Shown one piece after another: positions 1,068-5,518 of a stretch of DNA of 27,120 nt. Location: the NCBI GenBank assembly GCA_964548575.1, contig CAZJQW010000003.1:1-27120 (forward strand), read 5' to 3'. Both the position numbers and the translations under genes were made by a program. Under the pieces are notes generated by a model. It was not told the origin of the DNA, did not search any database, and was given only the letters and a program-made list of their open reading frames with translations. The first letter of the stretch is position 1. Each line of letters starts with the position of its first letter. The DNA is from an uncultured Candidatus Saccharibacteria bacterium (GTDB taxonomy: Bacteria; Patescibacteriota; Minisyncoccia; Phycocordibacterales; PALSA-1337).

Positions 1068-2060
1068 ATGACTACAACCTATGTAAATGATGCAATCTTT
1101 TGGATCGAATTGGAAAAGATACATCCCAATCCGTATCAGCCCAGGCGAGAGTTCGACGAAGCCAGACTTAAAGATCTATCCGAATCTATTCGCATGTACG
1201 GAGTGCTACAGCCTCTCGTTGTCACAAGAAAAGAAGTATTCCATGAAGGAGGAGGAATGAGAGTAGAGTATGAACTTATTTCAGGAGAGCGCCGTCTGCG
1301 AGCTTCCAAGCTTGCGGGTCTTGCGCAAGTTCCAGCTCTCATAAGGAGCGGCCAAGAAGACGCTCAGCTCAAACTCGAGATGGCTATCATAGAAAACCTT
1401 CAGCGCGAAGATCTGAACGCCGTTGACCGCGCACGTTCTTTTGACAGGCTGGCCAAGGAATTTGGATTGAAGCAGTCTCAAATAGCCGACAAAGTTGGGA
1501 AGAGTAGAGAGTACGTTTCGAACTCGATGCGTATACTCCTGCTTCCACCAGAGATGATCACTGCCTTGGAAGAGGGAAAGATATCGGAGGGGCATACGAG
1601 GCCTTTGCTCATGCTCATCGACAGACCGGAAGAGCAGCTGGTCTTATTCAAAGAGATCCAGACAAAAAAGCTGACTGTTCGAGAGGCCGAGTCTCTCTCT
1701 AGGCGCGTAGCAACAGAAAAGATCAGGAACAAAGGCAAGTATCTAGATCCTCAGATCATTGAGATAGAAAAGAATTTTACAGAGTCTTTGGGTACGCGCG
1801 TTCGAATCGAGAAAAATAAAGAGGGAGGAACTGTCACTATAGATTTCTTCAGTCCAGATGATCTTCAGGCTCTCTTGGAAAGATTGAAGGGAGAAAGATC
1901 TGAAAAGATAGATGACAAAATGACACAAAATCCACAAATTGAATCAAAGCCGGATTCTTCTGATACGAAACAGACACCAGTGGATGATCGCGCCCCCCAA
2001 GACATAAAGAAGCAAGAAGATAGCGAAGACTTGTATTCCTTAAAAGATTTCTCCTTATAG
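1068..2060 (+). CDS. parB: ParB/Spo0J chromosome-partitioning protein
   Basis: NPYQPRREF, GVLQPLVV, the CTP-binding motif GERRLRA, IIENLQREDLN and an HTH region. Confidence 0.95.
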   Translation: MTTTYVNDAIFWIELEKIHPNPYQPRREFDEARLKDLSESIRMYGVLQPLVVTRKEVFHEGGGMRVEYELISGERRLRASKLAGLAQVPALIRSGQEDAQLKLEMAIIENLQREDLNAVDRARSFDRLAKEFGLKQSQIADKVGKSREYVSNSMRILLLPPEMITALEEGKISEGHTRPLLMLIDRPEEQLVLFKEIQTKKLTVREAESLSRRVATEKIRNKGKYLDPQIIEIEKNFTESLGTRVRIEKNKEGGTVTIDFFSPDDLQALLERLKGERSEKIDDKMTQNPQIESKPDSSDTKQTPVDDRAPQDIKKQEDSEDLYSLKDFSL

Positions 2061-2065
2061 GCATC

Positions 2066-2110
2066 AAAAGAAAAGGCCTGATCGTCCGGATGATCAGGCC
2101 TTATATTCTT
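2066..2110. terminator. Bidirectional intrinsic terminator
   Basis: 11-bp stem AAGGCCTGATC(2073-2083)/GATCAGGCCTT(2092-2102), with an A-run before and T-rich sequence after. Confidence 0.8.
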
Positions 2111-2227
2111 GTATCTCCCATTGTATTTGTAACTCACCGGTGGCGTCTAGACGCCTGCACCATAAGACTATTTTCGTCCACAGCCAGGAGACCGAGTGAG
2201 TACCTTTTTTTATATTATCTCTGCTCC
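2066..2227 (-). ncRNA. Candidate structured small RNA between parB and topA; ends approximate
   Basis: Perfect TGaTATAAT upstream (2242-2234), a multi-stem core at 2129-2203 and a terminator at 2073-2102. The only ATG ORF contained in the interval is 9 aa. Confidence 0.45.
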
Positions 2228-2233
2228 AGAACA

Positions 2234-2242
2234 ATTATATCA
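2234..2242 (-). promoter_or_regulatory. Consensus extended -10 (TGaTATAAT) with no protein gene downstream
   Basis: Plus strand ATTATATCA at 2234-2242, just 3' of the topA stop. Confidence 0.55.
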
Positions 2243-2264
2243 TGTCTTTTAGAGAAAGGGTCCA

Positions 2265-4580
2265 TTATTTTTGCTCCGATTTCTTTTTTTGAAATCCGCG
2301 CTTGGCTTTCGGAGTAGCGAGTATTTCGAGGGCTCGTTCTAGAGTGATGCCGTACACGTCATCGGGTGATTTTATAGATCGAAATTCTCCGTCCTCCATA
2401 ATATACGGGCCGAACCTTCCTCGTGATGCGATGATGTCTTTGCCTGTCTTCGGGTTTGTTCCAAGCTTCTTGGGCAAACTCAAGAACTTGAGAGCTTCCG
2501 TGACAGTGACTTTTGATGGGTCGATTCCTTTGGGGATAGAAGCCATTTTTGGTTTCACTGGCTTTGGTTCGAGTGGTTGTTCAGCCTGATTCTTTGGTAC
2601 AACTTCTCCATCTTTGACTACATTTTCGGCTTCCTTATCTGCTTTGATTTTCTTTTTCTTAGCGCCTTTTTTTTTCTTTTCTAGCCTCTTTCCGAGTTGG
2701 ACGTATGGTCCGAACCTGCCAGTCAATACGAATATAGGCAAACCAGTTTCTGGGTCATGCCCTATGGGTTCGTCTTTTTTAAATTCGTGACCCTCGAGAG
2801 TAAGTGCGCCTTCGCAATCGGGATATTTGGAACAAGAAAGGAACTTGCCATTCTTTCCAAGTTTGATCTCCATAGGTCCTTTGCAAGTGGGGCATTTGAA
2901 TTTGGGATCAGCTTTGCCGAGGTTCGTGAGCTTGTCAATCTTTTCTTTTGACTTAACTTCGCTGTGGAATGGCTTGTAGAAATCGCGTAAAGTCTTCTCG
3001 TATGTACGAGTGCCGTTCGCTATCTCATCGAGGTGGTCCTCCATTTCGGCTGTGAATGAATCGCTGATATAAGTTGGGAAGTTCTCTTCCAGAAATGATG
3101 AAACAACATCTCCAGTGTCTGTGGGTATTATAGATTTGTTTTCTTTCTGTATATACCCGCGGTCTTCAATAGTTTTTGAAATAGAAGCGTATGTAGAAGG
3201 TCGTCCGATGCCTCTTTTCTCGAGCTCTTTGATGAGTCCAGCTTCGGTGTACCTTGGGGGAGGTTGAGTTTGCTTCTCCTCTGAATCTATAGACATGAGA
3301 TCTATAAGCTCACCTACTGTGACTTTGGGTAAGATACCTGCTTCGCCTTCAGACTCTGGATCTGCTTTGAGCCAACCATTGAATATGACTCGAGACCCTG
3401 TCGCTTCAAATACGGGCACCTCCGAGTCTGATTCGACGTTCGCACAAACTTTTGTTCTGGCTATGCGAGCATCTGACATTTGTGAAGCGATAGTTCTCTG
3501 CCAAATGAGTCGGTAGAGTTTCTTTTGCTCGTCCGAATGGCCAGCGGATAACTTGTTCATGTTCGTAGGTCGAACAGCTTCATGGGCTTCCTGTGCATTC
3601 TTGCTCTTTGTCGCATAGGTTCTAAATGACAGATAATCCTTCCCGTATGATTTCTCTATAGCGCCTGCGATCTGGCCCAATGCTTGTTTGCCTAGATTGG
3701 TAGAATCTGTACGCATATAGGTGATGTGACCTGACTCATACAGCTTCTGTGCAATGCCCATAGTTCGGGATGGAGAGAAGCCTAGTCTGGAGCTCGCTGC
3801 TTGTTGGAGAGTAGAAGTTATGAATGGTGCGCGAGGCGATCTCTTTTGTTCGGTTTCTTCTACGCTCGCTATCTTCCACGCGCCTTTTTTCGCACGCTCT
3901 AAAATATTCGAGACCTGCTTTTGTTCTTTTGGCTCTACAGAGCAAGTGAGCCTGAGAGACTCTCTGTTCGCTGTTTTCCATTCTCCGGCGATGACCCAGT
4001 ATGTTAGAGGATTGAATGCACGAATCTCGCGCTCCCGTTCCATGATGATGCGCAGAGCGGGAGATTGGACCCGACCAGCAGAAAGGCCGTATCTGACTTT
4101 TTTCCAAATAAGCCCTGAAAGGTCGTATCCTACTATGCGGTCGAGAACACGCCTGGCCTCTTGAGCTTCACGCAGATGTTGGTCTATGTCTCTTGGGTTT
4201 TCCAAAGCTTCCAATACAGCTTCCTTTGTGATCTCGTGATAGGTGATGCGCTTGAGCTTCTTTTTTATCGAAGCACCCACACGGTCTTTGAGGACTTCGG
4301 CGATGTGCCAAGCAATAGCTTCTCCTTCTCGGTCGGGGTCTGTTGCTAGGAGTATCTCTTCCGCTTTTACAGCAGAGCTTACTATGTCGGCGATCACCGG
4401 TTCTTTTTTCGCAACTACTTCATAGTGTGGCAAAAATCCGCCCTCGATGTCGATGGCTTTTTTGCTGGATTTGGGCAGATCGCGCACGTGGCCAACCGAT
4501 GCTTTTACGATGTAGCCATTCCCAAGATATTTTGAAATCGTCTTTGATTTCGAAGGTGACTCGACTATTACTAGCTTCAT
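2265..4580 (-). CDS. topA: DNA topoisomerase I (type IA)
   Basis: LVIVESPSK, ASVGHVRDL, ATDPDREGEAIAWH, SAGRVQSPAL, catalytic GHITYMRTDS and AQEAHEAVRPT. The C-terminus has one Zn ribbon plus GRFGPY repeats. Confidence 0.98.
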   Translation of the reverse strand: MKLVIVESPSKSKTISKYLGNGYIVKASVGHVRDLPKSSKKAIDIEGGFLPHYEVVAKKEPVIADIVSSAVKAEEILLATDPDREGEAIAWHIAEVLKDRVGASIKKKLKRITYHEITKEAVLEALENPRDIDQHLREAQEARRVLDRIVGYDLSGLIWKKVRYGLSAGRVQSPALRIIMEREREIRAFNPLTYWVIAGEWKTANRESLRLTCSVEPKEQKQVSNILERAKKGAWKIASVEETEQKRSPRAPFITSTLQQAASSRLGFSPSRTMGIAQKLYESGHITYMRTDSTNLGKQALGQIAGAIEKSYGKDYLSFRTYATKSKNAQEAHEAVRPTNMNKLSAGHSDEQKKLYRLIWQRTIASQMSDARIARTKVCANVESDSEVPVFEATGSRVIFNGWLKADPESEGEAGILPKVTVGELIDLMSIDSEEKQTQPPPRYTEAGLIKELEKRGIGRPSTYASISKTIEDRGYIQKENKSIIPTDTGDVVSSFLEENFPTYISDSFTAEMEDHLDEIANGTRTYEKTLRDFYKPFHSEVKSKEKIDKLTNLGKADPKFKCPTCKGPMEIKLGKNGKFLSCSKYPDCEGALTLEGHEFKKDEPIGHDPETGLPIFVLTGRFGPYVQLGKRLEKKKKGAKKKKIKADKEAENVVKDGEVVPKNQAEQPLEPKPVKPKMASIPKGIDPSKVTVTEALKFLSLPKKLGTNPKTGKDIIASRGRFGPYIMEDGEFRSIKSPDDVYGITLERALEILATPKAKRGFQKKKSEQK

Positions 4581-4615
4581 GTGTTCCTAGTATTACACGA
4601 TATTCCATGTTAGGT

Positions 4616-5518
4616 CTAGTGATTCATCTTGAACTTGCCGTCTTTTTGAGTTACAAGGCCATGTATTTCGAGAGTTCCAATTGTAACATTCACAAGAGTC
4701 ATAACCATGCCAGTTCTTTCCACAAGCTCGCTCGCTGTTCCAGGTTCGCGCTGCAATTCTGCAATGATGCGTGTTTGCTCATCGGTGAGACGTATCTGAT
4801 CAAGAAAGTTAATGCTCCTTTCGGGATCATAGCCCAATGATTCCAGAATGTCTCTACCAGATCTTATGAGTGCCGCTCCTTTGCGAATGAGCATATTGGG
4901 TCCGTAGGAACGGTCTCTGCTTATGTCTCCAGGTACGCAGTATATTTCACGATGAAAATTCTCGGCGTACTTGGCAGTAAGAAGGGTACCTGAATGTTGA
5001 GCGCCTTCTATAATGAGCACTGCGTGAGATACGCCAGCCATGAGAACATTGCGCTTTGGAAAAGTCCATTCCCCGCCATTTTTGTAGTGTTCGAATGGAG
5101 ATACAAGACAACCACCGCTTTCGAGTATCTTTTCTGCTAATTCGAGACGTGAGGGCGGGTACAATACTTTGGGATGAAGTCCTGAACCAGGAAAAGCCAT
5201 GGTCTTGAGGCCAGCCTTTATGGCTGCTTCGTGTGCAATGGAATCTATGCCTATTGCCATCCCTGAGACAATGCATATATTGCGTCCGCTAAGACCGCCA
5301 ATGATGCTCCTGCACATTTCGCGTCCATAGTCGCTATTGCGTCGCGACCCAATGACGCATAGGTATTTGTATTCATCGCCAGGAATATTTCCTGCTATCT
5401 CTAACCATTTTGGCTTGCCTGGAGTTTCCAATAGCAAAAAGGGGAATTCTGGTTGATAAATGCGTCTCGTATCGAACCTATCGAAAAGGGTGATGCTTTG
5501 GCTTTGTTGTTCATTCAC
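4616..5518 (-). CDS. dprA: DNA-processing protein DprA/Smf
   Basis: VIGSR, IVSGMAIGIDSIAH, FPKRNVLMAG, SGTLLTA, VPGDI and a C-terminal winged-helix-like segment; classic dprA-topA synteny. GTG start. Confidence 0.93.
   Translation of the reverse strand: MNEQQSQSITLFDRFDTRRIYQPEFPFLLLETPGKPKWLEIAGNIPGDEYKYLCVIGSRRNSDYGREMCRSIIGGLSGRNICIVSGMAIGIDSIAHEAAIKAGLKTMAFPGSGLHPKVLYPPSRLELAEKILESGGCLVSPFEHYKNGGEWTFPKRNVLMAGVSHAVLIIEGAQHSGTLLTAKYAENFHREIYCVPGDISRDRSYGPNMLIRKGAALIRSGRDILESLGYDPERSINFLDQIRLTDEQTRIIAELQREPGTASELVERTGMVMTLVNVTIGTLEIHGLVTQKDGKFKMNH

Follow-up and report, generated by a model that had tools for sequence, protein, structure and literature searches.

Small RNAs (sRNAs) embedded in the 3' untranslated region (3' UTR) of an mRNA are well described in enterobacteria. 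Those of 'type I', such as DapZ and MicL, are transcribed from a promoter of their own that coincides with, or closely follows, the end of the preceding coding region, use the terminator of the parent mRNA, and measure roughly 100-300 nt. DapZ/MicL-type sRNAs depend on Hfq and possess conserved seed regions. The sRNA repertoire of bacteria also turns over, and young sRNAs arise in variable intergenic regions. Very little is known about the regulatory RNAs of CPR/Patescibacteria; a verified sRNA with a mapped promoter would therefore be a useful data point and an example of new RNA genes arising in highly reduced genomes.

Here we analyse a spacer between the convergent genes parB and topA, for which an earlier note had proposed a structured small RNA of about 160 nt (hereafter the element). 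Each sequence feature that the note listed was located at its given position. The element shares with the enterobacterial 3'-UTR sRNAs that have their own promoter the place of the promoter, the shared terminator, and a non-coding character, although it is a candidate predicted from sequence and, unlike the DapZ/MicL type, comes from a genome in which neither Hfq nor conservation of the RNA was found. It also resembles young species-restricted sRNAs, which are likewise confined to a single species, lie in a rearrangement-prone spacer, and combine a promoter and terminator with no selected structure; those sRNAs are known from expression data, whereas the element is predicted from sequence signals. 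Finally, the hairpin at its end, flanked by an A-tract and a T-tract, is of the same kind as the bidirectional terminators found between convergent genes and is equivalent to the single terminator of the closest relative, but in our locus 160 extra bases part the terminator from topA.

The parB/topA junction and its terminator

The window analysed is the whole of contig C3 (27,120 nt), which belongs to a genome assembly of 656,305 bp in 107 contigs with an estimated completeness of 90%. Named relatives of its ParB, at 74-80% identity, are assigned to Candidatus Taylorbacteria, Parcubacteria, Paceibacterota or Patescibacteria, which places the organism among the CPR bacteria, in the Parcubacteria group. 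The parB and topA genes are arranged tail-to-tail, and the 204 nt between their two stop codons constitute the spacer studied here, a length at about the 75th percentile for convergent spacers of this genome. The features of the locus are listed in Table 1.

The strong terminator claimed in the earlier note at 2073-2102 was called on both strands by the terminator scan, and its hairpin is far above chance (z = -5.3 on the minus and -7.1 on the plus strand, with 0 of 200 shuffles as good). Located 12 nt past the parB stop, it is common to parB, topA, and the candidate RNA, and its minus-strand tail (UUUUCUUUU) is clearly better than that of the plus strand (UUAUAUUCUUGU). It is the only terminator that the scan called on the minus strand, with none between the topA stop and 2102. 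Because of this, the element is necessarily part of the transcribed 3' UTR of the dprA-topA mRNA; indeed, since the short spacer between the topA stop and the promoter (2243-2264) has no terminator, topA transcripts run on into it. The earlier note had held that its proposal would fall if the element were simply the topA 3' UTR. Membership of the UTR does follow from the lack of an earlier terminator, and the element may amount to no more than this, although an independent transcript is also predicted from the promoter described below. On the minus strand, the element is followed by the terminator and then by 1 kb antisense to parB, and the next minus-strand gene is located at 953-195.

Table 1. 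Annotated and predicted features of the parB/topA junction (positions within the window)
Feature	Position	Strand	Remarks
parB	1068-2060	+	Domains ParB_N, HTH_ParB, and ParB_C
Bidirectional intrinsic terminator	2066-2102	both	Hairpin 2073-2102; minus-strand U-tract UUUUCUUUU at 2072-2064
Single-stranded linker (AAAUACAAUGGGAGAUACAAGAAUAU)	2103-2128	-	Predicted; joins core to terminator
Three-way-junction core	2129-2203	-	Predicted; closing stem pairs 2203-2191 with 2141-2129
Hairpin B, GGCGU-CUAG-ACGCC	2142-2155	either	Perfect 14-bp DNA palindrome GGCGTCTAGACGCC; single copy in the genome
Hairpin A	2159-2184	-	9 pairs, 4 of them G-U; alternative 13-pair form 2154-2188
Single-stranded A/U-rich 5' tail (GAGCAGAGAUAAUAUAAAAAAAGG)	2204-2226	-	Predicted; carries an A7 run complementary to T7 on the plus strand
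T7 run	2205-2211	+	One base past the 3' arm of the closing stem; possible back-up terminator for parB read-through
Predicted transcription start, G	2227	-	7 nt past the last T of the -10 box, preceded by T; derived from leaderless promoters
Perfect extended -10 promoter TGATATAAT	2234-2242	-	No -35 box, like the genome's other promoters
topA stop-to-promoter spacer	2243-2264	-	22 nt; no terminator
topA	2265-4580	-	Toprim, Topoisom_bac, Zn-ribbon, and C-terminal repeats; stop TAA at 2267-2265
dprA	4616-5518	-	Directly upstream of topA

The extended -10 box as a promoter type of the genome

The perfect extended -10 box that the earlier note had placed just past the topA stop is present on the minus strand (2242-2234), 22 nt beyond the TAA, and its observation that this promoter points at no protein gene holds as well, since no start codon opens a frame past the predicted start. 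The significance of such a box depends on how promoters look in this genome. The motif TGNTATAAT occurs at 56 sites in the 656-kb genome, compared to a mean of 26 for 100 permuted motifs of the same composition. Between genes, 40-42 sites were counted versus 6-9 expected (8.2 from the permuted motifs and 6-9 from Markov models of intergenic sequence), while within coding sequence there are 12 versus 15 expected, the division between the two rests on crude ORF calls.

At 26 of the 56 sites, an ATG that opens a long ORF follows 4-9 nt downstream, most commonly after 6 intervening nt, and these sites are the promoters of leaderless mRNAs (examples are C1:12219, C2:19383, C9:11932, C10:12688, C13:3200, and C25:1682). 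Alignment of the 26 sites revealed neither a -35 box nor any further conserved position; the sole addition is the start context (pyrimidine at -1, purine at +1), and no feature beyond TGNTATAAT and this context was found to separate real from chance sites. A relaxed box, TANNNT, lies 5-8 nt before the candidate ATG of 209 of 630 ORFs, against 87 at a control spacing, and a Shine-Dalgarno-like core precedes 160 of the 630. The loci of relatives contain 32 sites of the TGNTATAAT type in 497 kb, 11 of which have an ATG following, pointing to use of the same promoter type in these organisms. Judged by these counts, TGNTATAAT without a -35 box is the real promoter type of the genome. Read against the alignment, the site at 2242-2234 carries everything that the proven promoters carry, and its predicted start, T2228/G2227, fits their pyrimidine(-1)/purine(+1) pattern.

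A non-coding precedent for this arrangement is provided by the genome's own RNase P RNA gene (RF00010, class A; contig C46:514-921, or L127:115-522; 93.6 bits, E = 1e-28). The match begins 5 nt past a TGTTATAAT box, so that this gene is likewise situated downstream of a lone extended -10 without a -35 box, and the RNase P case shows that non-coding RNA genes in this genome use this promoter type. The likeness is limited to the promoter: RNase P RNA is universally conserved and has its Rfam match, whereas the element matches nothing. The score of 93.6 bits is below the Rfam gathering score of 100, and because it falls short of this value, standard annotation would miss the gene. A useful by-product of the analysis is therefore that the -35-less TGNTATAAT box predicts transcription starts, including those of many leaderless mRNAs and of RNase P RNA, and the rule may be used for annotating promoters and non-coding RNAs in the lineage.

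How much weight the single site at 2242-2234 can bear is a separate matter. Locally the site exceeds chance, which is expected to place ~0.014 TGNTATAAT sites in a spacer of 204 nt. Genome-wide, however, about 4 intergenic sites without a downstream gene were observed versus 3.5 ± 2.4 for the permuted motifs; one of these is RNase P, and the other orphan sites can, as a class, be explained by chance. Because chance sites concentrate in this no-gene class, statistics alone do not prove selection of the site. Its persistence is no proof of selection either, as a spurious promoter with a terminator 160 nt away would hardly do harm and its survival is thus uninformative. What can be expected is that the site is active: no promoter determinant other than the -10 box is conserved in the genome, and a perfect copy should for this reason fire wherever it is placed.

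Restriction of the element to a single assembly

A BLAST search with the element in its own genome and 60 relatives (36 of the same genus) returned only the element itself, and blastn-short, nhmmer, and tblastx produced chance-level matches only among ~110 related loci. The loci fetched for comparison included the topA 3' ends of genomes in the same genus as well as 80 parB loci from metagenomes. The core was also cast as a covariance model of 26 pairs; across 70 same-genus genomes, this model produced one noise match, located elsewhere (E = 0.25), and the 100 syntenic loci searched with it (429 kb) contain no match at E <= 10. The pattern ACTCACNCGGT-N40-60-ACCGGTGAGT has 4 matches across all GTDB species, in unrelated phyla, where ~20 would be expected by chance on simple arithmetic, and the covariance model rejected all four. 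Viral contigs yielded 0 matches for two patterns, and phage and plasmid collections did not match the element; TGNTANAAT occurs on the topA-sense strand in none of the 61 other syntenic spacers. Across these collections, then, the element is unique to one assembly. The earlier note had suggested collecting parB/topA-adjacent homologues and testing them for covariation, and had counted the lack of either conservation or covariation against its proposal; no homologue was found in the collections searched, so that the proposal falls short by this measure of its own.

The convergent parB/topA arrangement itself is conserved, with spacers of 0-2171 nt over 61 syntenic loci. About 17 of the 61 have spacers of 50 nt or less, and many others hold unrelated inserted genes. 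An exact-protein look-up of ParB for closer strains gave no match. In a set of 5.8 billion proteins, the most similar ParB shares 84% identity, and the contig that encodes it breaks off at the parB stop codon and so lacks the spacer. The closest relative with downstream DNA (ParB 83%) possesses a spacer of 28 nt, which is one A6-hairpin-T6 bidirectional terminator overlapping the end of topA. This one-terminator spacer points to a compact ancestral junction to which ~160 bp were gained on the topA side, and in this comparison the extra 160 bp are an insertion and not an ancestral sequence.

The junction is an insertion hot spot in the wider group, the inserted genes differing between species (L005-L113, L116, L118). 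Some further spacers deserve mention. L008 (spacer positions 165-228) and L019 (168-230) share a 64-nt block of 80% identity (GAGGCCNNTTGCAGCCTCGCNTCTGGNAAGAT...) within surrounding spacers of ~320 nt that are unrelated, and this block could be a conserved non-coding element or a fragment of a small gene. The 150-nt spacer of L020 / L113 has inverted repeats of ~30 nt at its flanks (TGTCATTCCCGCGAAGGCGGGAATCC ... GGATTCCCGCCTTCGCGGGAATGACA) and resembles a repeat element or, alternatively, a long hairpin.

An independent transcript or an inert insert

The explanation that we prefer, and to which we grant about an even chance, is that of a lineage-specific insert which serves as the 3' UTR of topA and whose own promoter additionally yields a separate non-coding RNA of ~160 nt. 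Separate transcription would start at about G2227 under the control of the extended -10 box at 2242-2234 and end at about 2066. In its sequence signals, namely a promoter 22 nt past the topA stop and a terminator shared with the mRNA, the unit is arranged like a 3'-UTR sRNA that has a promoter to itself and ends at the terminator of its parent mRNA. The further traits of that class, a conserved seed or structure and Hfq, were not found, the element having no homologue and the genome no Hfq. The transcript would accordingly be young and restricted to its lineage and would not belong to a conserved structured-RNA family; the element is, on present signals, probably a young small RNA. Its value at present would appear low, as that of a single-genome candidate without conservation or a target.

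Much of the same evidence may also be read as describing DNA with no role at all, that is, an indel leftover in a recombination-prone junction that is transcribed only as topA 3' UTR, carries a -10 box by chance, and produces no meaningful RNA. The extreme plasticity of the junction (0-2171 nt over the 61 loci, often with unrelated inserted genes), the uniqueness of the element, the chance number of orphan promoter sites, the ordinary fold reported below, and a spacer length only at about the 75th percentile of convergent spacers all suit this account. It has more difficulty with a perfect copy of the genome's only conserved promoter determinant, which is expected to fire anywhere and of which only ~0.014 chance sites are expected in the spacer, and with the mere 28 nt kept by the closest relative. 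Furthermore, streamlined genomes of 0.65 Mb tend to shed useless DNA. We therefore regard inert DNA as a serious alternative but, on balance, a rather unlikely one.

Predicted fold of the minus-strand RNA

In its minimum-energy structure, the RNA runs from the 5' tail through the closing stem, hairpin A, hairpin B, and the linker to the terminator. Its elements largely agree with those described in the earlier note. The closing stem comprises 12 Watson-Crick pairs with single bulges at 2195 and 2131, just as described, and the GGCGU-CUAG-ACGCC hairpin is found at 2155-2142. The other inner hairpin had been described as 13 bp long (2154-2188); this form is possible, but the minimum-energy fold contains 9 pairs (2184-2159), and because 4 of these 9 are G-U, hairpin A is favoured on the minus strand. 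The 13-pair form and hairpin B both need G2155/G2154, so that the proposed competition between the inner hairpins is borne out by the pairing, while the 'switch' suggested on its basis is without backing.

For the core (2125-2207), the fold energy amounts to -27.7 kcal/mol on the minus strand versus -21.6 kcal/mol on the plus strand, with z = -2.5 (5 of 200 shuffles as good) and z = -1.4 (18 of 200), respectively. The full 162-nt transcript with the terminator reaches z = -3.0, mostly due to the terminator, and z = -0.8 without it; sliding windows across the element go no lower than -2.0 to -2.1. For calibration of these values, 700 intergenic windows of 83 nt were drawn at random from this genome; z <= -2.5 is attained by 8.6% of them and z <= -2 by 12%. 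The predicted fold is thus plausible but not exceptional for intergenic DNA of this genome, and the description of the element as 'structured' is not upheld, 9-12% of random windows being as good.

These figures bear directly on the proposal of the earlier note, a selected and functional regulatory RNA that acts on other genes through its three-way junction and possibly through competition between its hairpins. The promoter and terminator are as it described, the four G-U pairs do make the minus-strand fold better than that of the plus strand, and the z-score of the 162-nt transcript is low, albeit largely on account of the terminator. Against it stand the frequency of equally good folds between genes, the lack of a homologue and hence of covariation, the lack of an Rfam match, and the results on targets: a word-7 search of the 162-nt RNA versus the genome found no complementarity above chance, and Hfq was not found in the genome. 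The best antisense match, 12 nt long, pairs the linker (AUGGGAGAUACA, 2118-2107) with the dprA mRNA (5097-5108) and is at chance level given that ~12 exact 12-mers are expected by arithmetic. Taken together, these observations render a selected structured regulator unlikely.

If the preferred independent transcript has a function, this would most likely be exerted by base-pairing of the 5' tail or the linker without Hfq, or alternatively by a duplex with parB read-through transcripts, which would escape the terminator on its weaker plus side; both suggestions are speculative. A species-specific, Hfq-less regulatory RNA that pairs with parB read-through, or with other mRNAs via its tail or linker, is in our estimation a slim prospect. 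Were it true, the overlap with parB would create a duplex of ~140 nt for RNase III and thereby link the levels of ParB and topoisomerase I.

A reading of the spacer on the plus strand, with the closing stem followed by the T7 run (2129-2211), had also been offered. On that strand, the two could act as a back-up terminator for parB that stops polymerases passing the first hairpin and so shields topA from antisense transcription. This role would be compatible with the other explanations. The T7 run at 2205-2211 is real and begins one base past the 3' arm of a stem that, being purely Watson-Crick, forms on both strands, and the plus-strand tail of the first terminator (UUAUAUUCUUGU) is poor in comparison to that of the minus strand (UUUUCUUUU). 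However, a stem enclosing 49 nt is atypical and was not called by the terminator scan, folding on the plus strand is weak (z = -1.4; 18 of 200 shuffles do as well), and relatives make do with one hairpin. As it furthermore leaves the perfect minus-strand promoter unexplained, we consider this reading improbable.

Coding potential and known RNA families

The possibility of a small protein, encoded by a 46-codon minus-strand frame (2234-2094) that is open over most of the spacer or by a frame of 9-15 codons, can practically be dismissed. The sole start codon of the long frame (TTG, 2234) is part of the -10 box and immediately follows a TAA in the same frame, no later ATG, GTG or TTG opens it and no ribosome-binding site was found, tblastx gave nothing in ~110 related loci, Pfam had no match to the frames of the element, and a frame of this length is expected by chance (arithmetic) in about half of such spacers. 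From 2227 onwards, no frame begins with ATG, GTG or TTG, and the other frames in the transcript span 6-15 codons.

The earlier note had been unable to match the element to SRP RNA, 6S RNA, tmRNA, or riboswitches and had proposed a search of Rfam, which indeed revealed no matching family. With Rfam 15 at the gathering threshold, the whole window contains one tRNA only, outside the element, and a permissive scan of 1950-2400 gave best scores of 10.7-20.8 bits against thresholds of 41-59, mostly from terminator look-alikes. For 6S RNA, there is no match in the genome to RF00013, a model whose sensitivity is limited in that it found 6S in just 5 of 14 control genomes, and the predicted fold is a three-way junction plus terminator, not a rod with a central bubble. 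ARAGORN and Rfam place no tmRNA, tRNA, or RNase P RNA at the element; the tmRNA of the genome is located at C57:1935-2299 and the RNase P RNA on C46. A riboswitch or cis-regulatory leader was rejected, as no regulated gene lies directly downstream on the minus strand.

Two identities at the DNA level were also tried and rejected. A miniature inverted-repeat element (MITE) would account for the inverted arms, but the sequence is present in a single copy, has no counterpart in relatives, phages, plasmids, or viral contigs, and shows no clear end duplication. As regards a ParB-binding site, the window contains no match to the parS sequence TGTTTCACGTGAAACA with <=3 mismatches, and the palindrome GGCGTCTAGACGCC is unrelated to it.

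SRP RNA (4.5S/ffs) was a further candidate. Neither RF00169 nor RF01854 has a match in the genome itself or in 25 further genomes of the genus. This genome and the same-genus genomes searched also lack the Ffh M domain and any SRP54-type GTPase, and a six-frame motif search of the former agrees. The element cannot be read as the 'missing SRP RNA', because Ffh and FtsY are absent and no SRP RNA is to be expected in the lineage. The absence of SRP as a whole (RNA, Ffh, and FtsY) was observed in this genome and 12-25 same-genus genomes, including one that is 100% complete and one in a single contig. Absence of SRP (ffh, ffs) in Parcubacteria has been published (PMC4508563); the apparent absence of FtsY may extend beyond that report, in whose text a search revealed no mention of ftsY.

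Other orphan-promoter units in the genome

Orphan sites were defined by the absence of an ORF of >=90 codons within 150 nt downstream of TGNTATAAT, and 5 sites qualify: those of RNase P RNA, of a 77-codon helix-turn-helix ORF, of two short units on contigs C18 and C59, and the site at 2242-2234. The C18 unit (C18:4494-4690; L125) is a second promoter-to-terminator unit without a sizeable protein gene. It extends for ~170 nt after its promoter (TGCTATAAT), ends in a hairpin and a T7 run, and converges on the gene at 4573-5397. Its only ORF has 24 codons (MIKLLKKTTVKLVEYFYCKVIGVQ), and the unit displays no Rfam match and no similarity to the parB/topA element. On C59 (C59:186-330; L126), a TGTTATAAT box without a sizeable ORF is followed by a tRNA-like T-arm (CUGUGGUUCGAGUCCACAG), which was called by neither ARAGORN nor Rfam, and the T-arm-like sequence is followed in turn by a hydrophobic ORF of 31 codons (MKDFFAVISAIGTLSLFLIGAFVLPAKVHVS).
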